Below the pieces are notes generated by a model. The model made no database searches. It was not told where the DNA came from and saw only the letters and a list, made by a program, of their open reading frames with translations. A stretch of 64,000 nt of DNA from positions 14,109-78,108 of the forward strand of contig JBBIJO010000003.1 of assembly GCA_037445895.1 (NCBI GenBank), written 5' to 3'. The DNA is from Ignavibacteria bacterium. GTDB lineage: Bacteria; Bacteroidota; Ignavibacteria; Kapaibacteriales; UBA2268. The stretch's first letter is position 1. Every line of letters starts with the position of its first letter. Positions 12,779 through 41,746 of the stretch are shown piece by piece. The translations under genes and the position numbers were made by a program.

Positions 12779-12866
12779 TATAAAAAACTAAATGATTTGT
12801 TAAGCTAAAAACCTAAATTTATCAAATTTATTTGAGAAAAACAATATTATTACAGATTATTTTTTA

Positions 12867-12899
12867 TTGTTTATTTTTCGGATAATTACTGCTACTTTG
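12867..12899 (+). promoter_or_regulatory. Candidate Bacteroidota-type sigma-A promoter (TTG ... TAnnTTTG) upstream of the 12926 ORF.
   Basis: TACTTTG at 12893-12899 matches the -7 TAnnTTTG consensus and lies 27 nt before the ATG. A TTG is at 12867. The spacing is somewhat long. Confidence 0.2.
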
Positions 12900-12925
12900 C
12901 GATTTAAAATTTATAGGAGCAAAAA

Positions 12926-15244
12926 ATGTCGAAAAAAGATGAACTTCACGAATTAGAAAAAAATTGTATTGAGGTTAAGGACTACATTGAATTGTTTCGT
13001 AAAGCTTTGGAGGAACCGAGCGATAGGGAATATGCTTCTGAACTAATAGCTACTGCCGAAGAAGAATGTAAGTTTCCCAACGATTTTGTGCTTGTTGCCG
13101 AAGGATATTCGTTGCTTGGAAATCATAAGAAAGCGTATGAATTATATGAAGAGGCAGAAGATAGTGCCTTTGAACCATTAGAATTCGCACAAATAGGAAA
13201 TAGCATATTCGCTTATCTAAATGATTCGGAAAAAGCGAATGAACTGCTTCGTCGAGCAGTGAAGGATGTAACAAAGTTATCCGATGCTGTTTCTCTATTA
13301 GGTATGCTCCAAAATATCCCTCTTGGCGAGGAAGCGTTTCAAGAACTTTTTGGAAAAATTCAAGCACAGTGCAAAAGTTTAGAAGACTATAGAAATGTAA
13401 CCAAGACGATTATCGAAGAGGTTGGCAACATACAACTTGCTAAGACTTTCGTTCAACTAATCGAAAGTAAATTAGATGGAATAGAGGCAATCACCAATTT
13501 AGCTGTTACTATTTTTGAAATGTTCAATGACAAAGAATGGGCAATTAGGTTGCTCGATGAAATAAGCTCCGATGCCAAATTTACAAAGGAGTATATAAAG
13601 CTTGCTGAATGTTACCGTAAATTTTCGGAGTTTGATAAAGCTATGGAATTAATGGAAAATGCAAAAGATTATGCAGTCTTGGGCGAAGAATTTTTGGAAT
13701 TAGCCTTTGCATATTGGGATTTCGAACAAAATACGGATCTGTGTGTGTCCTTGATAGAAAAGTCATTGAAGGATATTAAGGAACAAAAGCGACTGATTGA
13801 ACTTGCCAAATTTTCTTCCGAGAAGTTGAAAAACCAAAATCTTACCCAAAAGATTTTGCTGCAAGTCGAAGCGAGGGCTTCTACAACGAGCGATTATATT
13901 AATCTAATTCAATCTGCCTTTGCTTTGGTAGAAGATGATGAATTCAAAGTTGTAATTTATGATAAACTCCTTGAAAAGATAGTTACACCTGTGGATTTAA
14001 TTTCTGTTGCCGAAGATGTCGTTAATCGAACTGAAGATATTGAAAGAGGTAAAAAATTCTTCGATAAAGCAATTCAAAATTGTTCAACATTGAAGCAAAT
14101 GATTGAAATTGCGGAAAAAGCCAATATATTATTTAAGAATAAGCAGTTTACTTTTGAAATTTTGAACCGAGCTACAAATTTTGCCAAGGAAACCACCGAT
14201 TATTTGCTGATTGCAGAAAAATCTTTTTCACTTATCGATGACAAAATTTTTGGACGTAAGAATCTCGAAACCGCAGAAGAACTTGTTACTAATCTCCAAG
14301 AAATCAAAAATGTCCACGAGTTATTTGTGAGGTTTTTATCCGATGAACTCGAAAGTATCCAAAGAGTAAATGAAAAATTAGCGAAACGCGAAATGTTCCA
14401 ATCCAAATACGATGAATTTCGAAAAATTGAAAGCGATGCCAAATATTTACAAGACTACTTAAATCTTGCTGAAAGGGTAGTAGGCGAGATTGACGATGCT
14501 CATTATTGCCGTAATCTATTGAGCAAAGCAGAAAAATTTCTCGATACCCAATTTCTTAATGTCGAAAACTATTTTAAATTAGCAAAAGCTATACTTAAGT
14601 TAACCGCAGATACAAATTGGGCAATACTTGTGTTCGATAATCTATATTGGAAACGAATTGTATTCATAAATGATTTACTACTATTCTGCAAATTGGTTAT
14701 GGGAGCTTTAGCTGACAAAGAAATGGCAAGAGAGTTATGCGAAAAATATATTAACAACTGGAAAAACAAGGTCGAAAATCCAACTGATGCTCTTAAGATA
14801 GCAAAAATTATGGTTGAATTCGATTTCGTTGGAAAAGATATCGTTTCATTGCTCGACAAATATGTTGGTGATATATGCTCTTTGCCTATTGCTATTGAAT
14901 TTCTTAAATTTGCAACGCGTCAAAACTTTATGGACATTATTGGCAAAATTAAAGAAAAGGTATGGGAATTAGTGCGAAGTTCGGATGATATATTAATGGC
15001 AACAAATGCTTTACTCCAAATTGGTGAGCCTAAAGAAAAAGTGATAGAAAATTATATGAAGTTTGTTGAAAATATTAATGATAGCAATATGCTTTTGTCG
15101 TTTACCGCGAATTTTTATGAACTTTTTGGCAACAACGAGAGGTTCAACGAAATTGTAAGTAAAATTACAACTAAGTTAAACAAACAACAAAAAGAGCGAG
15201 TTAAGAAGATTCATTCAATTTTTATGGAACAAAAATATTGGTAA
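12926..15244 (+). CDS. Hypothetical 772-aa acidic cytoplasmic protein built of about 40-aa helical repeats. Function unknown.
   Basis: The ORF is long, clean, with no signal peptide and an RBS (GGAG) 8 nt upstream. A recurring motif of hydrophobic-x-LA-(E/K)xx spaced about 40 aa apart appears as IQLAKTF, YIKLAECY, LIELAKFS, MIEIAEKA, YLLIAEKS, YLNLAERV, YFKLAKAI, ALKIAKIM and IEFLKFAT. The protein is rich in E/D/K. Confidence 0.65.
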   Translation: MSKKDELHELEKNCIEVKDYIELFRKALEEPSDREYASELIATAEEECKFPNDFVLVAEGYSLLGNHKKAYELYEEAEDSAFEPLEFAQIGNSIFAYLNDSEKANELLRRAVKDVTKLSDAVSLLGMLQNIPLGEEAFQELFGKIQAQCKSLEDYRNVTKTIIEEVGNIQLAKTFVQLIESKLDGIEAITNLAVTIFEMFNDKEWAIRLLDEISSDAKFTKEYIKLAECYRKFSEFDKAMELMENAKDYAVLGEEFLELAFAYWDFEQNTDLCVSLIEKSLKDIKEQKRLIELAKFSSEKLKNQNLTQKILLQVEARASTTSDYINLIQSAFALVEDDEFKVVIYDKLLEKIVTPVDLISVAEDVVNRTEDIERGKKFFDKAIQNCSTLKQMIEIAEKANILFKNKQFTFEILNRATNFAKETTDYLLIAEKSFSLIDDKIFGRKNLETAEELVTNLQEIKNVHELFVRFLSDELESIQRVNEKLAKREMFQSKYDEFRKIESDAKYLQDYLNLAERVVGEIDDAHYCRNLLSKAEKFLDTQFLNVENYFKLAKAILKLTADTNWAILVFDNLYWKRIVFINDLLLFCKLVMGALADKEMARELCEKYINNWKNKVENPTDALKIAKIMVEFDFVGKDIVSLLDKYVGDICSLPIAIEFLKFATRQNFMDIIGKIKEKVWELVRSSDDILMATNALLQIGEPKEKVIENYMKFVENINDSNMLLSFTANFYELFGNNERFNEIVSKITTKLNKQQKERVKKIHSIFMEQKYW

Positions 15245-15259
15245 TCTGATAGGTGATTT

Positions 15260-15904
15260 ATGAGGTTAATATTTCTTGGTCCTCCGGGTGCAGGAAAAGG
15301 AACGCAGGCAGAATTCATTTGCCGGGATTACGGAATCCGACAGCTTTCGACTGGCGATATACTCCGAGCACATCGGAAAAATGGGACCCCACTTGGGTTA
15401 AAGGCTCAACAATTTATGGATTGCGGCGAATTGGTTCCCGATGCGATTATTATCGATATGATTCGGGAAGAATTGCAAAAGCCCGAATTAAAAAATGGGT
15501 ATCTTCTCGATGGTTTCCCGCGCACTATTGCCCAAGCCGAAGCGCTCGATAAACTTCTCGAAGAGATGCATCAGCAACTTGATGCTGTTTTAATTTTGGA
15601 TGTTCCAATCGAAGAGTTGGTTACTCGATTGACCGCAAGAAGGACCTGCAAAGTCTGTGGAAAAACCTATCATCTTATTTATAATCCTCCGAAAGTGGAT
15701 GGAGTCTGCGATTTGGACGGAGGGGAATTATATCAAAGGAGCGATGATAATGAAGCAACTGTTCGTAATCGTCTTTCTGTGTATGAAAACCAGACAAAAC
15801 CATTAATCGAATATTATCGAAAAAAAAATATTGGAAAAAATATCAATGGATTAGGTAAAATTGATGAAATTTACCAAAGAATCAAAGAAGCATTAAACCG
15901 ATAA
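15260..15904 (+). CDS. adk: Adenylate kinase, long form with zinc-binding lid.
   Basis: P-loop [11 protein letters not shown] is present. The lid carries Cys/Asp residues (CKVCGKTYH...VCDLDG). Confidence 0.9.
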
Positions 15905-15930
15905 TACTGTTCTGGCGATTTTGTTGCGAT

Positions 15931-15961
15931 GTAATGGCTGTTTTTTGCAAACAGCCGTTAC
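15931..15961. terminator. Bidirectional intrinsic terminator hairpin between convergent adk and rho.
   Basis: gtaatggctgttt-tttgc-aaacagccgttac forms a stem of about 13 bp with one G-U pair and a 5-nt loop. A T-rich run (attatgaattt) follows on the plus strand. The hairpin abuts the rho stop codon. Confidence 0.45.
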
Positions 15962-15962
15962 A

Positions 15963-17288
15963 TTATGAATTTAAACCCTGCAAGAAATCCCGATTAGATC
16001 GTGTTCCTTTAATTTTATTCATCAAAAACTCGATTGCTTCGACTGTTTGCATTTCGCTTAGGACCTTACGCAAAACCCATACTCGGTTAAGTTCGTCGGA
16101 GGTTAATAGTAGCTCTTCTTTACGTGTTCCAGAACGATTAACATCGATAGCAGGAAAGATTCTTCTGTCGGAAATGCGGCGGTCGAGAACAAGTTCCATA
16201 TTTCCCGTTCCTTTAAATTCTTCGAAAATAACTTCGTCCATCCTACTACCTGTTTCAATTAAAGCAGTAGCAATAATAGTTAGTGAACCGCCTTCTTCGA
16301 TGTTTCGTGCTGCACCAAAGAAGCGTTTTGGTTTGTGAAGAGCATTTGCATCGACGCCTCCAGAAAGGATTTTTCCAGAGTGGGGTGTAACAGTGTTGCT
16401 GGCTCTCGCTAATCGAGTTATTGAATCGAGGAGGATTACAACATCAAGTTTAGCTTCGACGAGCCTTTTAGCTTTTTCGAGAACCATATCTGCAACTTGC
16501 ATATGGCGTTCGGGTGGTTCATCGAAAGTTGAGGAAACGATTTCGGCTTTAACTGAACGTTGCATATCGGTAACTTCTTCTGGGCGTTCGTCTATGAGTA
16601 ATATAATTAACTTTATTTCCGGGTGATTTTTTACTATGGCATTTGCCATTTGTTGCAAAAGTATAGTTTTGCCCGATTTTGGGGGTGCCACTATTAATCC
16701 TCGTTGTCCTTTTCCAATTGGACAAAGAAGATTGACAACTCTCATCGAATACTCGCTTGGGGAAGTTTCGAGGTTAATTCTTTTGACTGGATAGGTAGGT
16801 GTAAGATTGTCGAAAAGTTGGCGGTCGCGAAGTAAATCAGGTTCAAGATAGTTGACAGTTTCAACCTTTAACAAAGCAAAAAACCGCTCCCCTTCTTTCG
16901 GAGGTCGCACTTGACCACGAATAGTATCTCCGGTTCGTAAGCCAAAGCGTTTGATTTGCGACGGAGAAACATAAATATCATCGGGGGATGATAAGTAATT
17001 GTAATCTGCCGACCGAAGGAACCCATAACCATCGGGTAAGATTTCCAATATTCCGGTTGCACTTATGTAGCTTTCTGTTTGAACCTCCTTTGGTTGAGAT
17101 ATTGTTTGGGATTCAAGTATTTTCAGTATGAGTTCCTGCTTGCGGAGGTCTGCAAAGTTTGTAATTCCGAGTGATTTGGCTATTGCTGTTAATTCAGCAA
17201 TCTTTTTGCTTTTGAGGATTTCAACATCGATCATTTCTTTTGTTGGATGATTGTTGTTGATTTCATCCTTTACTGTTGTGTATGCCAT
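15963..17288 (-). CDS. rho: Transcription termination factor Rho.
   Basis: Walker [18 protein letters not shown], the Q and R loops, and the C-terminal GTGNMEL are all present in a 441-aa product. Confidence 0.9.
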
Positions 17289-26322: not shown

Positions 26323-29300
26323 TTGATAAATGTGCTTCGCTTTTGTATTGCCGCAATCTTTTTTTTGGCAAGTTACAATCTGAATTCTGGGACTTTCGTT
26401 GTTAAGTTTAAGAAGAATTTCGACAGTAAATTGCTTAATGAACGCTTCTCGAATATCAAAGCTCATTTTTCGGAGTTACAGTTTTCTAAGATGTTACAAA
26501 CTTCTGGTAACAAACTCAGAATTTCCTCCCAAAGTTTATTATCTTCTAATATGGCAAATAAATTATTGGGTTACTATGTTCTCGAAATACCGGACTCGTT
26601 AATTGCGAGAACATTAAGTGAAATTAATAGTTTTCCCGAAATCGATTTCATTGAACCAAATATTAAAATTAGTATTGAACAGGATAATGTTAGAGATTCG
26701 GATTTGCAAAAGCAATGGTATATTAATTTTGTGAGGGCACACGAAGCTTGGAAGAAATCTACTGGCAAAGGGATTCGAGTTGGTATTATAGACACGGGAA
26801 TTGATTTTGAACACGAAGATTTGAAAAATCGTATTTGGATAAATCCGCAGGAAGATATTAACCATACTGGTCAGTTCGAGCCTTGGCCCGATAGCGTTAA
26901 AATTAATGGAATCACAGGAGATTTAAATAGAGTTGATGACGACGGGAATGGGTTTATTGATGATATTATCGGATATGATTTTGTTAATCAAACTTATGGA
27001 AATTTAGGTGATTATTCTATTCCCGATGCTATTCCATTCGATGAACACGGTCACGGAACAATGGTTGCTGGCGTGATAGCTGCTGATATTAATGGGATGG
27101 GTATAGTTGGGGTAGCCCCAGGGGTTAAAGTAGTTGCTCTTCGCGCGTTTGATTTGACAGGCAATGCAGAAATCAAAGATATTGCTAATGCGATAGTATA
27201 TTCTGCGCTGAACGGAATTAATGTGTTAAACCTTTCGTTCGGTTCCCAAGAGTATTCTCGTTTGCTCGAAGATGCTATTTCTTTTGCACAATCTATGGGC
27301 TGTATAATTGTTGCATCCGCCGGAAATGATGGAACTATTATTCCACACTATCCATCGGATTTCAATGGGGTTATTTCTGTCGGTTCAATTACCCCCGATG
27401 GGACTATTGCTAATTCAAGCAATTTCGGGCCTAATGTTGATATATTTGCTCCTGGAGTAGAAATTTATACTACTTCTTTAAATAATACTTATCGTTATAT
27501 CTCCGGGACTTCCTTTTCTGCACCAGTTGTTTCTGCCGGTTGCGCTCTTCTTCTTTCTTTTGATTCTACATTGAAGGGAGAGGAAATACTTGGAATTTTG
27601 AAAGCCACACAGAAAAAAATTTTAGGGAAAGGGATGAAATACTCTCACGGTTATGTTGATTTTGCCGAATCTGTAAGCTTTTTTGGCTCTTCGCGGTTCG
27701 AGATTTTGAATATTCACAACGATGATGAATTTTTGAAAGAAGAGGTAATTACAGTTCCAATACAAATTTTTGCATATTCTCCATTTTTCTTTCAATATAA
27801 CCTTTACCTATACAAAAACGACACGACCTTGGTGCAAAGATTAGTTGAACGCTCAAGCGAACAATCGATAGGAAACCGTTTCGACTTTAATATTGGCAAT
27901 TTAGACGAAGGGCAATATACTTTAAAACTAATTGCTACTTTGCGAAATGGCAACCAAATCGAAAAGTCTGTTCGTTTTTTTGTATATAGTCGGGATTCTT
28001 CGATAAAAGTGGAATCGTTAGATTGGGCATCTTGTATTTACGAAAATCGAACCTTTTATGTGTTGGTAACAAGTAGCAATTTACCTACATTTTGCAGAGT
28101 AATCTTCTTTGCGAAAGATGGGAAAAAATTGTTGGAATTAAGTGACGAAACTTATTCACAATCACACTTTATACCTTTTTTGGGTATTGAGAATATAGCC
28201 GATAGGCCCCTAACATTTAGAATCCTTTATACTACAAAATCTGGAAAGGAATATAGTATTGACACAGCCATTAATGAGTTTGGATACAACAATCCTATTA
28301 GTTATTCAAAAAAGTTTAATACATTGCCTTTGTCGTATTTATTTAATTATACTGTTCCTATAAATTCATCGCGCTTCGATGGTTTAATGATAAATCCCTA
28401 TGACAATTTGAATTGGAAGAATCTTGAGCTATACAAATTTTCTGATACAGGATTTGCAAAATTGGCTGAATTGAAAGAACCTTGGATTCCAGTAGATACA
28501 GGAGATTCCAACGGTGATGGTAAATTAGAAGTTTTAACTACACTTTTAGGTCGAACAAGACTTTTGCAACCGGCGGGGGAACCACAAAATTATTTCGATA
28601 ATGTTTTGTTTCAAAGCGAGCCGAATTCTACTCTATGGGCTGCAAAAATGAAGGATTTCAATGGAGACGGCAAAGACGAGCTAATTTGTTTCGATGATAC
28701 ATCTATCCTCGTTATAAGCTATGAAGACGGAAAGTATAAAACCATTTCTCGGATTCTACCTCAAGATTCTTTCGGTGTTGTTGGCACTAAACCGAACATC
28801 CAAATTGCAGATTTTGATTCCGATGGAAACTATGAACTTGCATTATTTACGACTCGAGGGTATCTTCTCATCTACCAATACGATAAAGCCTTGGAACGTT
28901 TCGACCTTGAATACTCACTAAAAACCGAAGGCGACCCCTTTTCTACTGCAGCTTGTATTGGTAAGTTAAAATCAAACCAAAATTTCTCGATTTTCTTTAT
29001 TCAATCGAAATACTTCGAGGACAAGACCCACGAACAATTAAAAGGGTCGTTGTGGAATTTATTCAAAGTCGATGCAAGTTCAAAGGATACATATTCAATA
29101 ACTTACGAAAAATCATTTTATGGAGTGAGGAGTGGCAGTATTCCACAAGGTATTTTTTATAGGAATGGTATAAATGCTGGGAATCTCGATAAAGAAGAGG
29201 GAGACGAGCTATTGGTTTCTTTGTTTCCAAACTTCTATGTGCTGAAATTTGGAGCAGACAGCATTGGATTTACTCCGATTTTGTGGATACCTTTTGTTTA

Positions 29301-30573
29301 TTCAAACTCAGCGATTGTAAATGATTTCGATAACAATGGAGTAAATGAGTTCGGTATTTCAAATTGGGATGGCTTGCGTTTCTATGAGTTAAATGTGAAA
29401 GTTAAACTGTTTACACCATCATTTCTCGATGGCTGGTTGGATTCCACCAATAAAATAAATCTTTATTGGGAAAAAGTTGAAAATGCCGATAAATACGAAA
29501 TTTACGAGGTTTTGCCGAATGGAAGTATTAACCTTGTTGGTATGAGCTATTCGAATGATTTTATGTTGGAAGTCGTTAATCCACCTAACTCTATCGAGTA
29601 TATAGTCCGTGGAATAAATGATAGTGGAAATTACGAGCCTAGTGATTTTACTAATCCAATACGAATTTACTTTTTTAAACCAACCCGTGCATTATCTGTC
29701 GCAGTTGTATCGCCAAAGCAAATAGAAATTCATTTTACGGGGAAACTTCCATTGGTTTTCGCAAACAAATCCGTAATTCAAATCTATGATGAGAATTTGA
29801 AAGAGATTGAGTTCGAAACACTTCAAAGAGCAAACGATACAATTCTAGTTGTGACATTTTTCCAAAAATTGTGGATTGGTAAATATTTAGCCCAAATTGG
29901 GAATTTTCGGGATTATTGGGGTAACCGAACGATTTCAGATGGTATTGAATTCGAAATAGACACAACAAATGTAGTTGATTCTTTGCTCTTTGTTCAAAAA
30001 TTTGAATTTGTAAATAACAATAAGATTAGACTATATTTCAACTCAGCTTTGGATTCTATTTCTGCTACAAACCTGTTGAATTATCGAATTGAACCTTTCG
30101 GAGAAATTGTTAATGTCGAACTCGGTCAAGATATTTCTTCGATACAAATAGAGCTTGGTTCGAATGTTAATATAGTTTCGCTTGGAGTTGACTTCTATCT
30201 TGTTTTGGGGAAAATTTACTCATTAGATTCGACTCGAATTGTTGTTCCACCATTTAATACTATCGCACTAACTCGCGAAGCTCAAGAAATTTCGCATGCT
30301 TTTGCCTATCCTAACCCAATAGATTTATCTAAAGATGAACAATTGACTTTCGCTAATATACCATCGAGTTCAATAGTTGAAATATATGATGCGTATTTCC
30401 GTAAAGTTTTGGAATTAAAGAATGATAGATGGAAAGGAGGGATTCAAATTGATATACGGAATCAAAATCGATTTACTTTTGAAAGTGGAATTTACTATTT
30501 TCGGGTTCGGAAGTTGAACGGTGATGGTATTGAAATTATTTCAAATTTGAAAAAATTTGCAGTAGTCCAATGA
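26323..30573 (+). CDS. Subtilisin-like (S8) serine protease with FG-GAP/VCBS-like repeats and a T9SS C-terminal sorting domain.
   Basis: TTG start with signal peptide. Catalytic triad motifs are GIIDTGID (Asp), HGHGTMVAG (His) and GTSFSAPVVSAG (Ser). Repeats: DSNGDGKLEV, DFNGDGKDELICFDD, DFDSDGNYELALF and DFDNNGVNEFGIS. The last 80 aa (GIYYFRVRKLNGDGIEIISNLKKFAVVQ) look like a Por-secretion-tail. Confidence 0.8.
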   Translation: MINVLRFCIAAIFFLASYNLNSGTFVVKFKKNFDSKLLNERFSNIKAHFSELQFSKMLQTSGNKLRISSQSLLSSNMANKLLGYYVLEIPDSLIARTLSEINSFPEIDFIEPNIKISIEQDNVRDSDLQKQWYINFVRAHEAWKKSTGKGIRVGIIDTGIDFEHEDLKNRIWINPQEDINHTGQFEPWPDSVKINGITGDLNRVDDDGNGFIDDIIGYDFVNQTYGNLGDYSIPDAIPFDEHGHGTMVAGVIAADINGMGIVGVAPGVKVVALRAFDLTGNAEIKDIANAIVYSALNGINVLNLSFGSQEYSRLLEDAISFAQSMGCIIVASAGNDGTIIPHYPSDFNGVISVGSITPDGTIANSSNFGPNVDIFAPGVEIYTTSLNNTYRYISGTSFSAPVVSAGCALLLSFDSTLKGEEILGILKATQKKILGKGMKYSHGYVDFAESVSFFGSSRFEILNIHNDDEFLKEEVITVPIQIFAYSPFFFQYNLYLYKNDTTLVQRLVERSSEQSIGNRFDFNIGNLDEGQYTLKLIATLRNGNQIEKSVRFFVYSRDSSIKVESLDWASCIYENRTFYVLVTSSNLPTFCRVIFFAKDGKKLLELSDETYSQSHFIPFLGIENIADRPLTFRILYTTKSGKEYSIDTAINEFGYNNPISYSKKFNTLPLSYLFNYTVPINSSRFDGLMINPYDNLNWKNLELYKFSDTGFAKLAELKEPWIPVDTGDSNGDGKLEVLTTLLGRTRLLQPAGEPQNYFDNVLFQSEPNSTLWAAKMKDFNGDGKDELICFDDTSILVISYEDGKYKTISRILPQDSFGVVGTKPNIQIADFDSDGNYELALFTTRGYLLIYQYDKALERFDLEYSLKTEGDPFSTAACIGKLKSNQNFSIFFIQSKYFEDKTHEQLKGSLWNLFKVDASSKDTYSITYEKSFYGVRSGSIPQGIFYRNGINAGNLDKEEGDELLVSLFPNFYVLKFGADSIGFTPILWIPFVYSNSAIVNDFDNNGVNEFGISNWDGLRFYELNVKVKLFTPSFLDGWLDSTNKINLYWEKVENADKYEIYEVLPNGSINLVGMSYSNDFMLEVVNPPNSIEYIVRGINDSGNYEPSDFTNPIRIYFFKPTRALSVAVVSPKQIEIHFTGKLPLVFANKSVIQIYDENLKEIEFETLQRANDTILVVTFFQKLWIGKYLAQIGNFRDYWGNRTISDGIEFEIDTTNVVDSLLFVQKFEFVNNNKIRLYFNSALDSISATNLLNYRIEPFGEIVNVELGQDISSIQIELGSNVNIVSLGVDFYLVLGKIYSLDSTRIVVPPFNTIALTREAQEISHAFAYPNPIDLSKDEQLTFANIPSSSIVEIYDAYFRKVLELKNDRWKGGIQIDIRNQNRFTFESGIYYFRVRKLNGDGIEIISNLKKFAVVQ

Positions 30574-33401: not shown

Positions 33402-36400
33402 ATGACTAAATTTAAATGGATAATTATTCAAGCACTTTTCTTTATACTTAGCTACTTTTCTTTTTCACAAAAAGTTGTTGTGAGCGAGTACTATAATATT
33501 ACGGGTATTCCAAATGGAGAATGGACTGAACTTTTAGTTGTGCAAGACAATATAGATATTGTTGGTTTTACACTGCGCGATAATTCTGGGTCAACAGGGG
33601 TGCCAGTTCAATGGACTGGCGGCATTCGATTCAAAAACCATCCACTTTGGAGGAATCTTCGTTCTGGAACAATTATTGTTATTAATCATCGCTATTCTGC
33701 TTCGCAACGAGTTGATGTTGATAAACGCGATGGTTACATTGAAATAGACGCAGAAAATGAGACTTACTTCGAAAAAAGGTGCTTTAGTTGTGTTGTTGGT
33801 ATCGATTGGAACCAGAAAGCTTTGAATATTGCACAAGGAAGCGATATCCTTGAAATTATTGATAATAATGATAACCACGTTCACGCATTAGCACATATGC
33901 CTAATGCTTCGGGAAGCTGGCTCAATTTGCCGCCTCCAAAGATTTCCTACAATGGAAAAATTCCACAGGGAGGCGTTAGTGTTCAAGTTTGCCCCGGAAG
34001 GAATATTACATCTTATAACAAAGGATTTGATGTATTAAACGAGGAGGTTGTGCAATCTTTGGATTATGTTACCAAAGGTAAACCAAATAATCGAAGTAGT
34101 GCCATTGATGTGAATCAATTGTTCTGGCGTAATCTTCGTGAACCAGAATGGAATTCACCTAATTTAAATGCACGCATATTCAGGGATAAGGTTTTACTAT
34201 TATGGAATTCTATAAATGACCCAAACCCAAACGACAGTGTCAATGGATATTTAATCATACGAATACCATCGGAAGAATTGAGCCAGATACAAACTCCAGT
34301 CGATGGTCGAATATATAACGTTGGCGATAAGCTTGGTTCCGCAACCGTGGTGGGAATTGTGAATTTTTCGCAAACAACAAGTTTTGTCGATAAGTTTGCC
34401 ATTCCTTGCGATACAAGCTATACTTATAGAATTTATGCTTTCCGGTATCGTGCAGATGATTTCGGAGAGGACTCGCGTGCTGTTTACGCTCGTGGACGTT
34501 CTTACAACGAACATGTTGTTGGAGAAACCAACGTTTTTAAACAATTACCTCCGACACCGATTTTAAGTATAAAGGAAAATAAAAATAGGTTCTGCAAAGG
34601 CGATAGTACAATTATTTTTATTTCGAATGGCGAATTGCTGCGGGATATGAAAATTGAATGGTTCGTTGACGACAAAGTTATTCCTAACGAAAATAATATA
34701 TTAATTAAAGCAAAAACCGGAGGAACATACAAAGTAAAAGTTACCGATTCTTTAAATTGTCCTTCTTGGTCGGAACGCATAAATATTGACGTTCTTGCAT
34801 TTCCACAAGTTAACCTTATGGTAAATTCTGTAGTAGTGAACAATGATACTTCGTTTGTCGTATGTAAAGACGATACTGTAATTCTTGTTGCACACGGTTG
34901 GTCCAATTACAAATGGTTCAAAAATGGTAAATTGGTCCAGGAAGGAAATCGCTCGACCTTTAATGTAGTAGAAACGGGAAGTTATCGTCTCGAGGCAACT
35001 AACAACCTTTGCACGACGAAAACCCCTGTGGTGACAGTTAAGTTTCTGGACCAGCGTGCTGAATTTAATTACGATACCTTAAATTTTTATGCTGCCAAGG
35101 ATGTGCCATACGTAGATACTACAGTTATTTATTATAATCTTTCAGCCGATACGATTTTTGTTAGTTCATATAGTTTTGAAGGAAGCGGTTTTGAGTTAAT
35201 CACCCCTAAAGTCCCATTTGTAGTTCTTCCTTACGGGGATGTTAACCTTGTTACAAGATTCCATCCCACAATGTCGGGAGTGTTTGTTTCGAAACTGATT
35301 TTGAGAAAGGAATGTGGTGTTTCCGATACTTTATTTCTAAGTGGTGTAAAAAAGTTTGGCGATTTAGGCAGTTCTACCGATGTTTTGGATTTTGGGATAA
35401 TTCCACTGTGCTATGACTATGGAATAGATACAACTTTGAGAATTTACAATCGTAGCTTGGAACTTGTTGAACTCCGAAATTTTGAGATTTATGCCCCGTT
35501 TGTAGTTTTAAGTCCTTCGTTCCCAACTTCTATTTTTCCACAAGATAGCCTCGATATAACGATTCGTTTCGCTGTTAACCAAGAGGGTAGATTCCAAGTT
35601 CCATTAAATATTGTTTATCGAATTAACAATATTTTCGACACTTTAAAATTACTGGTAAAAGGAGATGTAGATTATCCAAAATATGAAATTAGAAAGGATT
35701 TCAACGAACCATTGGTTTTTGGGGAATGTGTAAGTTCGATGGATACTTCTTTTACGATAGTTAATAATTCCAAGTTTCGATTGGAATATGTTTTCGATAA
35801 TCAGGAGAATACTGTTCAATTGTCTTCAAAAAGTGTAGTTCTTGAACCGTATAGTATTGCGAGTATTCCGGTTACCATACGTCCAATCAAGACAGGGATT
35901 GCAGTTTCTAAACTTTTTTGCTACGTATCTCCTTGTGGAATCAGAGATTCTGTTGAATTTCTTGTCGATAAAAAAGGAGTTCTAATTTCTTTTCCCGAAA
36001 TGACAATAGACTTTGGGGATATTTTTGTTTGCAACATCGATTCAATACGTGCTCGAAAAGTTTCGGTTTCTATTGACGGAGATACTTTGGGGTTAGTTCG
36101 AATACGTTCGATACGAGTAGAGGGGAGTTTTTCCTCGAATACTTCTGCTGGAGCAAAATTGAAAAATGGCGAAGAAATTGAAGTTAGTTTTACTCCCGAT
36201 TCTTCTGGCTATTACGAAGGGGAAATTACTTTTCTTTTGGAACCCTGTCTGGATGAATATAAGTTTGAACTTAAAGGAAGATATGTTAAAGGTAATTATA
36301 AATTAAGTTCTAAAATTCTTGATTTTGATTTTGTGGAAATTGGCTTGTTCGAAACTAAGAAGGTGGTTGTCGAGAATACTTCCAACCAAATAATTTATAT

Positions 36401-37358
36401 TGTTGGAATTTCCGATGTTCTTTCGCCGTTTGAACTGGTTGCATCCAAGACTTTCCCCATTATGCTAAAACCCAACGAAAGCATAAATTTAATTTTCAAA
36501 TTTATACCTATTCAAGTAGGTGATTTTATGCAAACAATTTATATTGATTTTGGCTCGCCTTGTTTTGTTATGGATTCCATTGAATTATTCGGGAAAGGAA
36601 TTGAACCACAGCCCAACATTATTACTCTTGCACTCCCATCTATAGAATCAAAACCTATGAAAATTTTACAGATTCCAATATATCTCGAAGTATCGGAAGA
36701 AAAAAGAATTCGGCTATTTCGATTGGAATTCGATATTAACTTCAACTTCTCGCTCTTCGATTTTTATAAAATCGATTTAAATTATAATTTTGATAATGTC
36801 GATACGATTAGGACGTTAGGAAAAGTTTCTTTTCGGTTAGATTTCGATACAAACTCGTTTGTAAGAAGTGGAGTGATTGGATATTTAGTCGGAAGGGTAA
36901 TGTTAGGTGATGAAAAAAGTACACCACTTACCTTCGCCAATGTTGAAGCTTTGGGGAAAGGCGAAATTCGTGTTGAACAACGGAATGGAAAAATTACTTT
37001 GGACAGTATCTGTGCTTTGGATTTAAGGTTAATTTCAACCGAAACTTTGCCAAACGTCACTTTCAAAAAATTTGAAAATGATGGAATATCCTTCGAGGTG
37101 AGCTCTTCCAAAGGTTGGAATAAATTGCACATCAAGGTTATAAACTTGTTGGGTCAAATTGTTTATTCAGATACGAGAAACATTAGGTCTGCAAGTATCG
37201 ACGAACTTACAATACCAGATTCGGAACTGCCCGACGGATTTTATATTTTTGTTTTCGAGTTCATTAGCGAAAATAATTACTATTTACCACAGACTTTGAA
37301 GGCTTTAATAGCAAAAGGAACCTTTCTTGTCTTGTCTTCTACTACAACAACACATTAA
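33402..37358 (+). CDS. Large (1318 aa) cell-surface protein: N-terminal lamin-tail-domain, multiple Ig-like/beta-sandwich modules, T9SS C-terminal sorting domain.
   Basis: Signal peptide. LTD-like segment VVVSEYYNITGIPNGEWTELLVVQDNIDIVGFTLRDNSG...GTIIVI. C-terminal KVINLLGQIVYSD...LPDGFYIFVFEF resembles the T9SS CTD motif. Confidence 0.65.
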   Translation: MTKFKWIIIQALFFILSYFSFSQKVVVSEYYNITGIPNGEWTELLVVQDNIDIVGFTLRDNSGSTGVPVQWTGGIRFKNHPLWRNLRSGTIIVINHRYSASQRVDVDKRDGYIEIDAENETYFEKRCFSCVVGIDWNQKALNIAQGSDILEIIDNNDNHVHALAHMPNASGSWLNLPPPKISYNGKIPQGGVSVQVCPGRNITSYNKGFDVLNEEVVQSLDYVTKGKPNNRSSAIDVNQLFWRNLREPEWNSPNLNARIFRDKVLLLWNSINDPNPNDSVNGYLIIRIPSEELSQIQTPVDGRIYNVGDKLGSATVVGIVNFSQTTSFVDKFAIPCDTSYTYRIYAFRYRADDFGEDSRAVYARGRSYNEHVVGETNVFKQLPPTPILSIKENKNRFCKGDSTIIFISNGELLRDMKIEWFVDDKVIPNENNILIKAKTGGTYKVKVTDSLNCPSWSERINIDVLAFPQVNLMVNSVVVNNDTSFVVCKDDTVILVAHGWSNYKWFKNGKLVQEGNRSTFNVVETGSYRLEATNNLCTTKTPVVTVKFLDQRAEFNYDTLNFYAAKDVPYVDTTVIYYNLSADTIFVSSYSFEGSGFELITPKVPFVVLPYGDVNLVTRFHPTMSGVFVSKLILRKECGVSDTLFLSGVKKFGDLGSSTDVLDFGIIPLCYDYGIDTTLRIYNRSLELVELRNFEIYAPFVVLSPSFPTSIFPQDSLDITIRFAVNQEGRFQVPLNIVYRINNIFDTLKLLVKGDVDYPKYEIRKDFNEPLVFGECVSSMDTSFTIVNNSKFRLEYVFDNQENTVQLSSKSVVLEPYSIASIPVTIRPIKTGIAVSKLFCYVSPCGIRDSVEFLVDKKGVLISFPEMTIDFGDIFVCNIDSIRARKVSVSIDGDTLGLVRIRSIRVEGSFSSNTSAGAKLKNGEEIEVSFTPDSSGYYEGEITFLLEPCLDEYKFELKGRYVKGNYKLSSKILDFDFVEIGLFETKKVVVENTSNQIIYIVGISDVLSPFELVASKTFPIMLKPNESINLIFKFIPIQVGDFMQTIYIDFGSPCFVMDSIELFGKGIEPQPNIITLALPSIESKPMKILQIPIYLEVSEEKRIRLFRLEFDINFNFSLFDFYKIDLNYNFDNVDTIRTLGKVSFRLDFDTNSFVRSGVIGYLVGRVMLGDEKSTPLTFANVEALGKGEIRVEQRNGKITLDSICALDLRLISTETLPNVTFKKFENDGISFEVSSSKGWNKLHIKVINLLGQIVYSDTRNIRSASIDELTIPDSELPDGFYIFVFEFISENNYYLPQTLKALIAKGTFLVLSSTTTTH

Positions 37359-37530: not shown

Positions 37531-39108
37531 ATGAGAAAGATATTTATTATTATTGCTATTTTTTCTTTTCTTGCTTTTATAGTTTTAAACACAGTTTTTC
37601 GTACTTGGGATGTTCAATCTCCTTTGGAAAAATTGAAAGAACAATACGAAAATAAGGAAGACACGAAAGCCGTCGATCACTCGCAATTTTCAATATTGAA
37701 GCAAGTATTCGAACACCCTTCGGAAGTAACGAAAGCTTGCGTCAGTTGCCATAACCTTACATCTCATCAAGTAATGAACTCGAGCCACTGGAATTGGGAG
37801 CGCGAAGAATATGTAAAAGGAAAGGGTGTAGTTTATTTAGGGAAAAAGAATGCCATTAATAATTTTTGCATTTCTTCGGAAGGTAACGAACCAAGTTGTG
37901 CGAAGTGCCACATTGGGTTTGGTATGGATAGCAAAGGCAAAGTGTTTACCGATTCGGTAAACATTGACTGTTTGGTTTGCCACGACAATACAGAAACTTA
38001 TAGTAAAGCACCCGAAAAAGGGGGAGCGCCTTCGGAAACGGTAAACCTTAGTTTTGTTGCACAAAATGTTGGGAGACCCCGAAGATCTAATTGTGGAATT
38101 TGTCATTTTTATGGTGGTGGTGGAAATAATGTTAAGCATGGTGATCTTGAAAAGGCAATGTTTGAACCGACCAAAGAGATAGATGTTCATATGGGTGTTG
38201 ACGGTGCTAATATGCAGTGTGTTGATTGCCACGTAACTAAACAACATAATATTTCGGGAAGGCTTTATTCTCTTTCTTCGATGAACCGCAACAGGGTATT
38301 TTGCGAACAATGTCACTTGTCGGAACCACACACCGACGAAATACTTAATGAACATACTCTTAAAGTGTCGTGCCAAACTTGTCATATTCCTATTTATGCA
38401 AAAGTCAACGCGACGAAAACTTATTGGGACTGGTCAACCGCTGGGAAACTTCGAAATGGACAACCATACGTTGAGGAAGATAGTGTAGGAAATGACAAAT
38501 ATATGTCGATAAAGGGAACTTTTGTTTGGGGAAAAAATCTTAGACCCGATTATATTTGGTTTAATGGAAGTGCAACTCATTATTTAAAAGGGGATATTAT
38601 AGAGGATACGACAAAAGTTGTTGTATTAAATAAGTTGTTTGGTTCGTATTCCGATTGGGAGTCGAAAATTTACCCTGTAAAAACTTTTCGTGCTAAGCAA
38701 CCATTCGACCCGATTAATAAAATCCTTATTAGCCCAAAACTTTATGCTGAACGGAAAGGCGAAGGTGGATTCTGGAAGGATTTCGATTGGATAAAGTCTT
38801 CCGAAATAGGTATGAAATTAGCAAATTTGCCTTTTAGCGGGAAGGTGTCGTTTATTGAAACAGAAATGTACTGGCCTGTCAACCATATGGTGGCACCGAA
38901 GGGACAAAGTTTACAATGTAAGAGTTGCCATACACGGAATGGATCTCGTTTGGCTGGTTTGACCGATTTTTACTTGCCGGGGCGCGATAGCTCTGCGACT
39001 GTAGAATTTATAGGCAAATGGCTTGTTATTTTGGTTTTTATAGGTGTTGTTTTTCATGGAAGTTTAAGAATTTATAATAATTTTCGCAATAAACAGGAGA
39101 TGAATTGA
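37531..39108 (+). CDS. Octaheme c-type cytochrome, membrane-anchored (tetrathionate-reductase OTR or HAO-like family).
   Basis: Eight CxxCH motifs (CVSCH, CAKCH, CLVCH, CGICH, CVDCH, CEQCH, CQTCH, CKSCH). N-terminal signal peptide and C-terminal TM helix (WLVILVFIGVVF). RBS GGAGAG. Confidence 0.8.
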   Translation: MRKIFIIIAIFSFLAFIVLNTVFRTWDVQSPLEKLKEQYENKEDTKAVDHSQFSILKQVFEHPSEVTKACVSCHNLTSHQVMNSSHWNWEREEYVKGKGVVYLGKKNAINNFCISSEGNEPSCAKCHIGFGMDSKGKVFTDSVNIDCLVCHDNTETYSKAPEKGGAPSETVNLSFVAQNVGRPRRSNCGICHFYGGGGNNVKHGDLEKAMFEPTKEIDVHMGVDGANMQCVDCHVTKQHNISGRLYSLSSMNRNRVFCEQCHLSEPHTDEILNEHTLKVSCQTCHIPIYAKVNATKTYWDWSTAGKLRNGQPYVEEDSVGNDKYMSIKGTFVWGKNLRPDYIWFNGSATHYLKGDIIEDTTKVVVLNKLFGSYSDWESKIYPVKTFRAKQPFDPINKILISPKLYAERKGEGGFWKDFDWIKSSEIGMKLANLPFSGKVSFIETEMYWPVNHMVAPKGQSLQCKSCHTRNGSRLAGLTDFYLPGRDSSATVEFIGKWLVILVFIGVVFHGSLRIYNNFRNKQEMN

Positions 39109-39800
39109 TGGCACATAGCAAGATTTACATTTATAAAGGGTTCGAAAGGTTTTGGCACTGGATGCAAGCCCTTTTGATTTTTTTTCTTGCCTTCACAGGC
39201 TTCGAAATTCATGGTGTTTATCATTTTTTTGGATTTCGCGAAGCTGTCCGCTACCATAACGTTGCAGCTTATATGTTCATTGCATTGATAATTTTTGCAA
39301 TTTTTTGGCACCTTACTACTGGGGAATGGAAGAATTATATTCCAACGCTTAGAAACATAAAAGCACAATTGGATTATTATTTGTTTGGAATTTTCCGAAA
39401 TGCACCGCATCCAACAAAAAAATCTGTTTTGAGCAAGCTTAATCCTTTACAAAAAATTACTTACTTTGCTTTGAAAATATTAGTTATACCTTTAAGTGTA
39501 TCGTCGGGTTTGTTGTATATGTTTTTTCGTTACCCAACCCGCTATGGTATCGAAGAGATAAGTATCCAAAATTTGAAGTATATCGCTGTTTTTCATACTC
39601 TTGCTGCATTTTTTTTGGTTGCTTTTATTATTGCTCATTTATATCTAATTACAACGGGCAAAACAATCACTTCGAACCTTAAAGCAATGCTCACAGGTTA
39701 CGAAGAATTCGAAGACGATAAAGAGCAGAATGTTATAGAATCGGAAATAGAAAATCCAATCGAAAAGGTTACTTCACAAAAAGAAAGGGTAAAATTATGA
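39105..39800 (+). CDS. Membrane di-heme cytochrome b (Ni/Fe-hydrogenase b-type / cytochrome b561-like subunit).
   Basis: 231 aa with 4 TM helices and conserved His (FERFWHWMQALLIFFLAFTGFEIHG; HTLAAFFLVAFIIAHLYL). ATGA overlap with the octaheme gene. Confidence 0.7.
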   Translation: MMAHSKIYIYKGFERFWHWMQALLIFFLAFTGFEIHGVYHFFGFREAVRYHNVAAYMFIALIIFAIFWHLTTGEWKNYIPTLRNIKAQLDYYLFGIFRNAPHPTKKSVLSKLNPLQKITYFALKILVIPLSVSSGLLYMFFRYPTRYGIEEISIQNLKYIAVFHTLAAFFLVAFIIAHLYLITTGKTITSNLKAMLTGYEEFEDDKEQNVIESEIENPIEKVTSQKERVKL

Positions 39801-40315
39801 ACAAGATTAATTATATGAATCCGTATTTAGCTGGATTTCTTCTTGGATTACTTCTTATTGTTACAGTTTATATTACAGGCCGTGGTTTGGGAGCCAGTGG
39901 AGCATTCAAGAGCTATGTTGTGGCAAGCGCGGAAACCATAGCGCCGTTACATTCCGAAAATTCAAAATTTTATCGGGAGTACCGCAATGAACATAATAGT
40001 AGTAACCCTTTAATGAATTGGCTAGTTTTCGAGGTTACGGGGGTGTTAGTAGGTGCATTCATTTCTGGTTTAATTTCAAATAGGCTAACACTAACTTTGG
40101 AAAAAGGTCCTAATTTGACCAATAGGTTGCGAGTTGTGGCAGCCTTGATTGGTGGCGTTCTTTGGGGTGTGGGATCCCAGTTTGGTCGCGGGTGTACGAG
40201 TGGTGCTGCTTTAAGCGGTATGGCAGTTATGTCAACTGGAGGAATCATTACGATGTTTTCAATTTTTGCAGGAGCATATCTTTTTGCTTTTTTCTTCAGA
40301 AAACTGTGGATTTAA
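39797..40315 (+). CDS. YeeE/YedE-family (sulfur-transport, DUF395) membrane protein, half-size.
   Basis: Family signature GRGLGASGAF ... GSQFGRGCTSGAALSGM in a 172-aa product. ATGA overlap with the cytochrome b gene. Confidence 0.7.
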   Translation: MNKINYMNPYLAGFLLGLLLIVTVYITGRGLGASGAFKSYVVASAETIAPLHSENSKFYREYRNEHNSSNPLMNWLVFEVTGVLVGAFISGLISNRLTLTLEKGPNLTNRLRVVAALIGGVLWGVGSQFGRGCTSGAALSGMAVMSTGGIITMFSIFAGAYLFAFFFRKLWI

Positions 40316-40332: not shown

Positions 40333-41523
40333 ATGGGACCTTTGGTGCCAGACGTTGTAAGTAATAACCTGAACTTGATTTTAGCTTTTTTCATTGGAAT
40401 TGCCTTTGGTGCAATTCTTGAACAGGCTGGGTTTTCATCGACAAGGAAACTGGTGGGTTTATTCTATGGATACGACTTCACTGTTCTTAGGGTCTTTTTT
40501 ACTGCTGGTGTTGTTGCAATGATAGGAGTTATGGCGCTTTCTCATTTTGGATTTATCGATATGAATTTAGTTTATGTAAACCCTACTTATCTTTGGTCGG
40601 CAATTATCGGGGGACTCATTATGGGTTTGGGGTTTGTGATTGGTGGTTTCTGTCCCGGCACAAGTATTTGTGCTGTTGCTATCGGAAAGGTTGATGCTAT
40701 TATATTTGTTATAGGAGTATTTTTAGGAGTGTTGATTTTTGCGGAGGGATATCCAGCTTTCGAAGGGTTGTATAAATCCGAATTTTGGGGAAATCCCAAA
40801 ATATTTGAAACATTGAGTATTTCCCCAAATTTATTCGCTTTAGCGATGGTGTGCTTTGCTATGCTTGCATTTTGGTTTGTTGGATTAGTCGAAAGAAAAG
40901 TTAATAAAGAACCTTTGAAGCAATTTAAATTAAGACCATATTATATAGTTCTTTCTATCGTAGGATTTATTCTTTTAGTTTCGGCTTTTACTCTCAAGGA
41001 TAGGAAGTCTGCTATTCTACAAGTTATTCAAGACGAACAGTATGTCAAATCGAACAAATTGGATGTAATGAACGTCGATGAATTTGCTTTCCGGTTGATG
41101 GACAATGAAGAAGAACTCGAAGTTGTCGATTTTAGGGAACCGAATGATGCAAAAACATTGCCTTTACCAAAATCCAAACTTTATACTATCGATAATTTAT
41201 TCGAGAAGGAACCAAGCAAACATTTGCAAGTTCGAGGGAAAAAATATGTGATTGTTGCTAATGATGAGTTTACGGAACGGAAAATCGGGGTGATTGTAAA
41301 TGAATTAGGGTTGAATAGAATGATGATTCTCGAAGGTGGGCTAAATTATTTTAAAGAACAAATAATCAATTTCAAACCGATTCAAAATCCTAAAACTTTG
41401 CTCGAAAGCTATACTAATCGGTTCCGGGAGAAAGCTAGCAAAATTATTCCTGTTCTTATAAATCGAAATAGAACGCTTCAACCAATAGAAAAAAAACAAC
41501 AGAGAGTTCTTGGGGGTTGTTAA
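40333..41523 (+). CDS. YeeE/YedE-family membrane domain fused to a C-terminal rhodanese-homology domain.
   Basis: N-terminal half carries GFVIGGFCPGTSICAVAIG (YeeE motif). The C-terminal 150 aa fit a rhodanese fold (VIVANDEFTERKIGVIVNELG) but have no Cys at the active-site-loop position. Confidence 0.65.
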   Translation: MGPLVPDVVSNNLNLILAFFIGIAFGAILEQAGFSSTRKLVGLFYGYDFTVLRVFFTAGVVAMIGVMALSHFGFIDMNLVYVNPTYLWSAIIGGLIMGLGFVIGGFCPGTSICAVAIGKVDAIIFVIGVFLGVLIFAEGYPAFEGLYKSEFWGNPKIFETLSISPNLFALAMVCFAMLAFWFVGLVERKVNKEPLKQFKLRPYYIVLSIVGFILLVSAFTLKDRKSAILQVIQDEQYVKSNKLDVMNVDEFAFRLMDNEEELEVVDFREPNDAKTLPLPKSKLYTIDNLFEKEPSKHLQVRGKKYVIVANDEFTERKIGVIVNELGLNRMMILEGGLNYFKEQIINFKPIQNPKTLLESYTNRFREKASKIIPVLINRNRTLQPIEKKQQRVLGGC

Positions 41524-41673: not shown

Positions 41674-41746
41674 ATTGATTAGTCTATAATACCTTTTAAT
41701 TCCCTTTTTGTTATTTTTGTATTTGTTTAATTTTTTTGGTTATACA

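Follow-up and report, generated by a model that had tools for sequence, protein, structure and literature searches.

Relation to described repeat proteins

Proteins of the tetratricopeptide repeat (TPR) class (Pfam clan CL0020; TPR_1, TPR_2, TPR_6, TPR_7, TPR_8, TPR_12 and TPR_14) are built from antiparallel pairs of helix A and helix B that recur every 34 residues and stack into a solenoid, with hydrophobic residues at positions 4, 7, 11 and 24, small residues at positions 8, 20 and 27, and no catalytic motifs. The same features were found in the 772-amino acid product of the gene at 12926-15244 (+) of the window, by which we mean the whole 64,000-nucleotide stretch of the Ignavibacteria bacterium contig JBBIJO010000003.1 (assembly GCA_037445895.1) that was analyzed here. 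This protein is a TPR solenoid made of degenerate TPRs, and very probably it serves as a non-catalytic cytoplasmic scaffold. It departs from a typical TPR protein in that Pro32 never occurs, a small residue fills positions 8, 20 and 27 in only about one repeat in two, and its scores lie below the Pfam gathering values. Moreover, its 21 repeats, with essentially no other domain, are unusually many for a bacterial cytoplasmic protein, and the array is broken by a conserved 29-residue helix.

A similar length and an all-TPR superhelix characterize Ctr9 (Paf1 complex), Ski3 (SKI complex), TTC21B/IFT139 and the TPR domain of OGT, whose superhelices hold several subunits of a complex. These eukaryotic TPR/HAT scaffolds differ from the 772-residue protein in sequence (10-13% identity), in pathway and perhaps in shape (TM-scores of 0.13-0.27), and common descent beyond the repeat type is unsupported. 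Among bacterial counterparts, the BcsC TPR domain and PilF are periplasmic or outer-membrane components with signal peptides, RapH and other Rap proteins carry a catalytic or three-helix N-domain, the class II chaperones of type III secretion have only about three TPRs each, and none of these possesses the conserved N-terminal or hinge motifs of the family described below. A further candidate analogue was DVU2210, a YcaO-TPR protein of Desulfovibrio vulgaris that genetic evidence links to sulfate activation and to molybdate sensitivity (PMC7774982); it was rejected because its phenotype is carried by the ATP-dependent YcaO domain, which the 772-residue protein does not have, and the similarity is only that of generic TPRs.

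Repeat period and predicted fold

The self-similarity of the protein was examined by scoring BLOSUM62 matches at each lag against 300 shuffled sequences. Lag 34 gave the highest signal (z of 6.2-6.3), followed by lags 102 (5.2), 68 (4.6) and 17 (4.3), while lags 40-43 ranged from -1.5 to 2.1 and nothing at lags 35-47 exceeded lag 34. The same lag ranked first in all eight family members tested (z of 4.6-12.9), and when residues 16-457 were cut every 34 residues, the resulting 13 repeats aligned with zero indels. An AlphaFold2 model built on 14 homologs was wholly helical, with a mean predicted local distance difference test score (pLDDT) of 89.9 and values of at least 70 at 757 of the 772 residues. 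It contains 44 helices of 12-16 residues each, whose starts lie about 17 residues apart: between residues 17 and 457 a new helix begins every 17 residues, after which come a 29-residue helix at 475-503 and 15 further helices. The model thus comprises 21 helix pairs with a cap at either end, which can be laid out on the gene as follows.

Residues 1-16 (12926-12973, + strand): N-terminal cap helix (residues 3-11) and conserved start motif
Residues 17-452 (12974-14281, + strand): TPR 1-13, 26 helices in an unbroken 34-residue register
Residues 457-503 (14294-14434, + strand): hinge, consisting of helix 457-470 and the 29-residue helix 475-503
Residues 508-748 (14447-15169, + strand): TPR 15-21, 14 helices
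Residues 753-769 (15182-15232, + strand): C-terminal cap helix

Identity of the repeat

To relate this register to the TPR consensus, the signature W4, L7, G8, Y11, A20, F24, A27 and P32 was tested by residue size and hydrophobicity over the 21 repeats and 500 shuffles. It was satisfied at 102 of 168 positions, compared with 70.8 +/- 3.5 in the shuffles (z of 8.9; shuffle maximum 81); positions 4, 7, 11 and 24 were nearly always hydrophobic, and positions 8, 20 and 27 carried a small residue in roughly every second repeat. The best-fitting repeat, residues 220-253 (TKEYIKLAECYRKFSEFDKAMELMENAKDYAVLG), shows the classical TPR pattern with Y4, L7, A8, Y11, A20, M24 and A27. TPR-clan Pfam models matched up to 11 of the 14 close homologs (TPR_2 in 11 of 14, best E-value 4e-6), and the distant relative P0023 exceeded the TPR_8 gathering score (27.0 vs 25.7 bits). 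These observations were further strengthened by a profile made from the family's own N-terminal repeats, which retrieved from the PDB the consensus-TPR designs 8bu0 (1.2e-11), 7obi (1.8e-10), 2fo7 and 1na0. A Foldseek search of the model against the PDB returned the long TPR/HAT scaffolds Ctr9, Ski3, IFT-A TPR subunits, PRPF6/SYF1 and OGT at E-values of 1e-10 to 1e-6, and the low TM-scores of these matches, quoted above, indicate either that the superhelical path differs or that the global shape of the model is unreliable. With the entire protein as query, phmmer found no match among PDB sequences, and the 14-homolog profile gave only marginal, unrelated PDB matches (a designed helical protein at 0.009 and an E1 enzyme at 0.03).

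Other helical repeats were considered and set aside on their periods, which are 36-44 residues for Sel1, 37-47 for HEAT, about 42 for Armadillo and 35 for PPR, and which are contradicted by the peak at lag 34; Sel1 and PPR Pfam matches to the protein and its homologs were marginal or absent. A sequence-only reading of this gene had gone further and proposed a candidate new repeat family, with some 18 units of 40-43 residues that resembled neither TPR nor HEAT, Sel1 or PPR. Its description of a helical, repetitive protein was borne out by the model, in which the repeats form a solenoid-type array of helix pairs at high pLDDT. In favor of a new repeat, one may cite that the protein passes no Pfam repeat threshold and that the LA(E/K) motif following an aromatic or aliphatic residue is real; this motif, however, coincides with TPR positions 4, 7 and 8. 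The period and the number of units were mistaken, since self-similarity is lacking at lags 40-43 and the model holds 21 helix pairs, and the supposed mismatch to the TPR consensus is overturned by the signature score, by the 17-residue spacing of the helices, by the repeat profile that finds TPR designs at 1e-11 and by the fold matches to TPR/HAT proteins. As the periodicity is exactly that of the TPR, a known repeat with matching period accounts for the array, and the proposal of a new repeat has been refuted by the periodicity and profile results, with next to no probability left to it.

A second TPR protein is encoded in the window at 54044-55720 (558 amino acids; Pfam TPR_1 at 7e-35 plus many other TPR models). 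The same genome thus encodes textbook TPRs, while the repeats of the 772-residue protein are too degenerate for the thresholds.

A conserved family with a fixed architecture

Scans with Pfam and NCBIfam yielded no family above threshold and none spanning the whole protein, in keeping with the earlier statement that no whole-protein family is recognizable, which holds for Pfam, NCBIfam and PDB sequence matches. A word-indexed protein search recovered 14 relatives, all of 766-773 amino acids, and its repetition with a wider alignment (A3) added none to these 14. An exhaustive hidden Markov model search, on the other hand, yielded 443 relatives at E <= 1e-3, 79 of them at E <= 1e-30; about 45 cluster representatives were full-length (767-788 amino acids), and genome and metagenome scans located 15 + 63 loci with a G+C content of 0.32-0.74. 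Some JGI records already title relatives as "tetratricopeptide (TPR) repeat protein". Named sources include Candidatus Kapaibacterium Ch6, metagenome-assembled genomes (MAGs) of Ca. Thermonerobacter, "Ignavibacteria bacterium", "Gammaproteobacteria bacterium", and Hydrogenophilales, Hydrogenophilaceae, Betaproteobacteria and Thiobacillaceae MAGs; the members thus come from Kapaibacteria and from beta- and gammaproteobacteria. Five loci (L006, L015, L016, L017 and L019) are titled "uncultured Hyphomicrobiales bacterium" (binchicken, SRP co-assembly MAGs) and have a G+C content of only 0.34-0.44; given this low value and the Kapaibacteria-type synteny of L006, including SusD-like genes, the Hyphomicrobiales label looks wrong.

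The family occurs in three forms, long (767-788 amino acids), medium (about 670-680) and short (615-621), all of which start with MAT[KR]xxLE...C...D[YF]..LA. In close relatives the start motif reads M-x-x-K-x-E-L-x-x-x-E-K-N-C and the C-terminus ends in EQKYW. Cys14 is kept in 91% of 55 non-redundant members and is absent from many short-form members, which speaks against a redox pair of Cys14 and Cys48 that had been considered. The short form (L064-L073, L079 and L082) lacks query residues 47-199 (153 residues, or 9 x 17) and the medium form (L052, L055 and L056) lacks approximately residues 44-143 (about 100, or roughly 6 x 17), both retaining the conserved N-terminal 45 residues, so that the differences in length come from dropping entire helix units.

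Two stretches stand out as conserved. One is residues 1-90 (C14, D33, E45, P51, E78 and E86), where conservation is highest in TPR 1-3, and the other is residues 440-535, which span the long helix (K484, R488, Q492, Y495, E502, D524 and Y527), with EKLxKRExxQxKYxEF in the hinge as the most conserved motif of the family. Conservation is poor from about residue 560 on, that is, over the C-terminal 200 residues. Relatives at 35-67% identity nonetheless align almost without indels, and at L001-L011 and L021 the TPR protein is 35-38% identical, compared with 74-79% for Adk, 84-88% for Rho, about 80% for the band-7 protein and 71-78% for the alcohol dehydrogenase. The TPR protein therefore evolves far faster than all its neighbors, yet its length stays constant within a few residues. 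Taken together, this is a conserved, uncharacterized family under clear constraint with a fixed architecture of about 770 amino acids (13.5 TPRs, a hinge helix and 7 TPRs).

Expression of the family was traced through P0163, an ortholog from Mushroom Spring on contig JGI24185J35167_1000023, where it lies beside adk (_15), rho (_14) and an ftsL-like gene (_13). This gene order identifies it as gene _16 (JGI24185J35167_100002316), which Table S1 in Thiel et al. 2019 (PMC6338057) names "hypothetical protein" and assigns to expression cluster E ("strong evening"). Its listing in this hot-spring metatranscriptome indicates that the Ca. Thermonerobacter ortholog is transcribed in situ. As to expression and phyletic spread, on both of which the sequence-only reading had made its proposal depend, an ortholog is thus transcribed and the homologs are widespread, well beyond one strain.

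A probable cytoplasmic TPR scaffold

The best explanation of these results is that the protein very probably belongs, as a class of mechanism, to the non-catalytic cytoplasmic TPR scaffolds, a role already suggested by the sequence-only reading. The product would be a soluble acidic alpha-solenoid made of a cap helix, 13.5 TPRs in a 34-residue register, a long hinge helix, 7 TPRs and a second cap, and would act, as other long TPR proteins do, by holding partner proteins or peptides in the manner of a scaffold or adaptor. The conservation pattern suggests that partners may be bound by TPR 1-3 and by the hinge region (residues 440-535), and the fast-evolving C-terminal array might be a spacer or a lineage-specific surface. 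The gene would very probably be transcribed together with adk from a promoter within 12779-12925, the transcript ending at a hairpin at 15928-15964.

Several points count against this picture. The canonical Pro32 was found in 0 of 21 repeats, the protein stays under all Pfam TPR gathering scores (best TPR_14, 20.8 vs 23.5 bits), and an hhalign comparison of the repeat profile with one three-repeat CTPR3 consensus sequence was not significant. The predicted template modeling score (pTM) of the AlphaFold2 model is just 0.51, which leaves the overall superhelix shape and curvature of the solenoid uncertain. Finally, the metatranscriptome places the ortholog and adk in different clusters, the adk gene of the same contig belonging to cluster D ("weak evening") (PMC6338057, Table S1), although both peak in the evening.

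The gene and its probable transcription unit

The ORF (open reading frame) is complete and real, as had been recognized from its length and lack of ambiguity. The protein is acidic, again as described earlier (pI 4.92; 138 Asp and Glu vs 105 Lys and Arg), and rich in Glu, Leu, Lys and Ile. The charged N-terminus MSKKDELHELEKN argues against a signal peptide, and the sole hydrophobic window (residues 578-596; KD 2.04), tried as a membrane segment, was rejected, being a high-confidence buried repeat helix in the model and polar in homologs; the absence of both elements and the position just upstream of adk agree with the earlier description. The features of the unit are listed below.

12779-12925 (+ strand): intergenic region between the TPR gene and a divergent alcohol-dehydrogenase-like gene; presumed promoter
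12915-12919 (+ strand): ribosome-binding site AGGAG, read from the sequence, with the ATG 6 nt further on
12926-15244 (+ strand): TPR gene, the whole ORF of the acidic cytoplasmic all-TPR protein
15245-15259 (+ strand): 15-nt spacer between the TPR gene and adk, containing AGGTGA at 15251-15256
15260-15904 (+ strand): adk, adenylate kinase, 214 amino acids; second gene of a likely two-gene unit
15928-15964 (unstranded): perfect 16-bp hairpin between convergent adk and rho, overlapping the last bases of the rho stop codon

Within 12779-12925, sigma-70-like matches were weak only, and the promoter could not be pinpointed. A terminator-like site was looked for in the 15-nt spacer and none was found, and this close spacing makes co-transcription of the TPR gene and adk likely. 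Pfam ADK and ADK_lid were matched in the adk products of orthologous loci. The hairpin downstream of adk (dG of -24.5 kcal/mol, z of -5.5, with 0 of 200 shuffles equally stable) probably acts as a bidirectional terminator for adk and rho alike, closing the TPR gene-adk unit.

Gene neighborhoods and possible partners

In the clade of the window and two sister clades, the entire neighborhood is syntenic across 13 loci. The order is cinA, tsaD, an FGE-sulfatase-like gene, an aminotransferase gene, a band-7 gene and the alcohol dehydrogenase gene, followed divergently by the TPR gene and adk, and then, in the convergent direction, by rho, an ftsL-like gene, susD and susC; the gap between the TPR gene and adk is 11-15 nt. 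As synteny in these clades is genome-wide, this neighborhood says little about function. Elsewhere the neighbors vary, including PEPCK, pcnB, DUF1249, phosphoglucomutase, hslU, a DsbD-like gene, ispH, a Lon-like gene with sufE, glpE, secA/argJ and others, so the question whether the gene always lies beside adk and rho is answered in the negative. No neighbor is universal across the loci, while adk, qmoAB, aprBA and flhBA recur.

These recurrent neighbors suggest two more specific roles for the scaffold. In bacteria that reduce sulfate or oxidize sulfur via adenosine 5'-phosphosulfate (APS), it could be an accessory of the dissimilatory APS reductase module that tethers or assembles soluble AprBA and/or QmoAB, and perhaps Adk, which recycles the AMP of the AprBA reaction; we hold this to be a tentative possibility, and rather unlikely. 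It draws on two non-homologous linkages. In nine low-GC loci (L015, L017, L018, L019, L020, L044, L047, L051 and L067), the TPR gene directly follows qmoA-qmoB on the same strand with gaps of 23-235 nt, the order in L015 being qmoA-qmoB-TPR gene-adk; the qmoA-like and qmoB-like products are HdrA-type flavoproteins, the second of which also has ferredoxin and MvhD/FlpD domains. In two high-GC loci (L023 and L027), it lies downstream of aprB, aprA and a gene for a CxxCxxCC-domain protein, the NCBIfam equivalog matches scoring 945 and 196 bits, and the linked AprA is closest to AprA of Gammaproteobacteria and Chromatiales MAGs (82-89% identity), an AprA match and the family homolog P0040 each lying on a contig of 3,425,439 bp. 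The presence of adk downstream in the window clade, where its product would handle AMP from the AprBA reaction, a GlpE rhodanese gene downstream in L024 and L025 and a sufE gene nearby in four loci point in the same direction. Those hosts that could be checked dissimilate sulfur: complete sat-apr-qmo-dsr sets are present in Kapaibacterium Ch6 and in Ca. Thermonerobacter (PMC7509429, PMC6338057), and the short form, which had been guessed from its G+C content and flagellar context to belong to Thiobacillus-like sulfur oxidizers, then proved to carry the names Hydrogenophilales and Thiobacillaceae. On this basis the family as a whole might be an unrecognized accessory of APS metabolism, common to sulfate-reducing Kapaibacteria and sulfur-oxidizing beta- and gammaproteobacteria, that scaffolds AprBA, QmoAB and possibly Adk as one complex, a generalization that we consider equally doubtful. 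Of about 90 loci, the gene is linked to qmoAB at 9 and to aprBA at 2 and is unlinked at most, with no sulfur genes inside 5-8 kb at L022, L026 and L028-L041, and each linkage may reflect one lineage-level event (in-group identity of 66-92% for QmoB and 88% for AprA). Furthermore, apr and qmo are absent from the 64-kb window, Ca. Thermonerobacter and Ch6 have qmoAB and aprBA at other genomic positions, and sampling is biased toward hot springs, aquifers and soda lakes, which are rich in sulfur bacteria. As classical sulfate reducers are absent among the few named homologs, the family cannot be a core component, and a literature search for a TPR protein connected with aprBA/qmoAB or with Kapabacteria returned nothing relevant.

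The other role would be that of a flagellar export chaperone or regulator binding substrates or the cytoplasmic domains of FlhB/FlhA of the type III export gate, which we regard as very improbable. The short-form gene stands directly before flhB-flhA-flhF-?-fliA-motA on the same strand in ten loci (L061, L064, L065, L066, L068, L071, L072, L073, L079 and L082), the gene is divergent from fliP-fliR-flhB-flhA in the Kapaibacteria loci L012, L014 and L016, and small acidic TPR proteins are known as type III secretion chaperones. These chaperones, however, have about 160 amino acids and 3 TPRs against the 772 amino acids and 21 TPRs found here, the ten short-form loci probably all belong to a single betaproteobacterial lineage (Hydrogenophilales/Thiobacillaceae), at other loci the short form has hslU, a DsbD-like gene or ispH as its neighbor, and the window locus and most long-form loci have no flagellar neighbors. 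The reading of the protein as a TPR scaffold of a general kind is thus preferred to either assignment.

At the two aprBA-linked loci, whose contigs are of gammaproteobacterial type, a protein of about 300 amino acids with a CxxCxxCC domain (PF03692, with no NCBIfam name) is encoded immediately 3' of aprA (L023 3973-4893 and L027 1594-2481; 65-67% identity) and may be an unrecognized companion of AprBA in these sulfur oxidizers. In Ca. Thermonerobacter, two conserved hypothetical genes lie between aprA and qmoC (Thiel et al., PMC6338057).

Other features of the window

The segment 37531-41523 encodes a multiheme cytochrome c of 525 amino acids (Pfam Cytochrome_cB at 1e-64 plus Cytochrome_C7), two small ORFs (39105-39800 and 39797-40315) and then, at 40333-41523, a YeeE/YedE-type "Sulphur transport" membrane protein. 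It may be a cluster for respiration or transport of sulfur compounds, hinting that the organism of the window handles inorganic sulfur. Large ORFs are also present: those at 960-2837 and 41708-43786 (625 and 692 amino acids) gave no Pfam match at 1e-8, a 1318-amino acid ORF at 33402-37358 has a Cep192_D4-like domain only, and a 1416-amino acid ORF at 26323-30573 encodes a subtilase. Given a type IX secretion system (T9SS) plug-like protein at 44087-45424, the products of these large ORFs are probably secreted or exposed on the cell surface, the organism being Bacteroidota-like.

Significance

The repeat type is an ordinary TPR, and the claimed new repeat is not there. The interest lies instead in the family, which has a fixed architecture, is constrained and transcribed in situ, is covered by no Pfam or NCBIfam model, and has members in uncultured Kapaibacteria as well as in proteobacteria that oxidize sulfur. 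Its restricted distribution, together with the recurrent qmoAB, aprBA and adk neighborhoods, provides a concrete and cheaply testable hypothesis. Knowledge of how electrons and adenylates pass between Qmo, AprBA and the pool of adenylates is still incomplete. If the linkage to qmoAB, aprBA and adk is not functional, the family is one more lineage-restricted TPR scaffold; if it is functional, the family would add a soluble organizer to the Qmo-AprBA-adenylate step.

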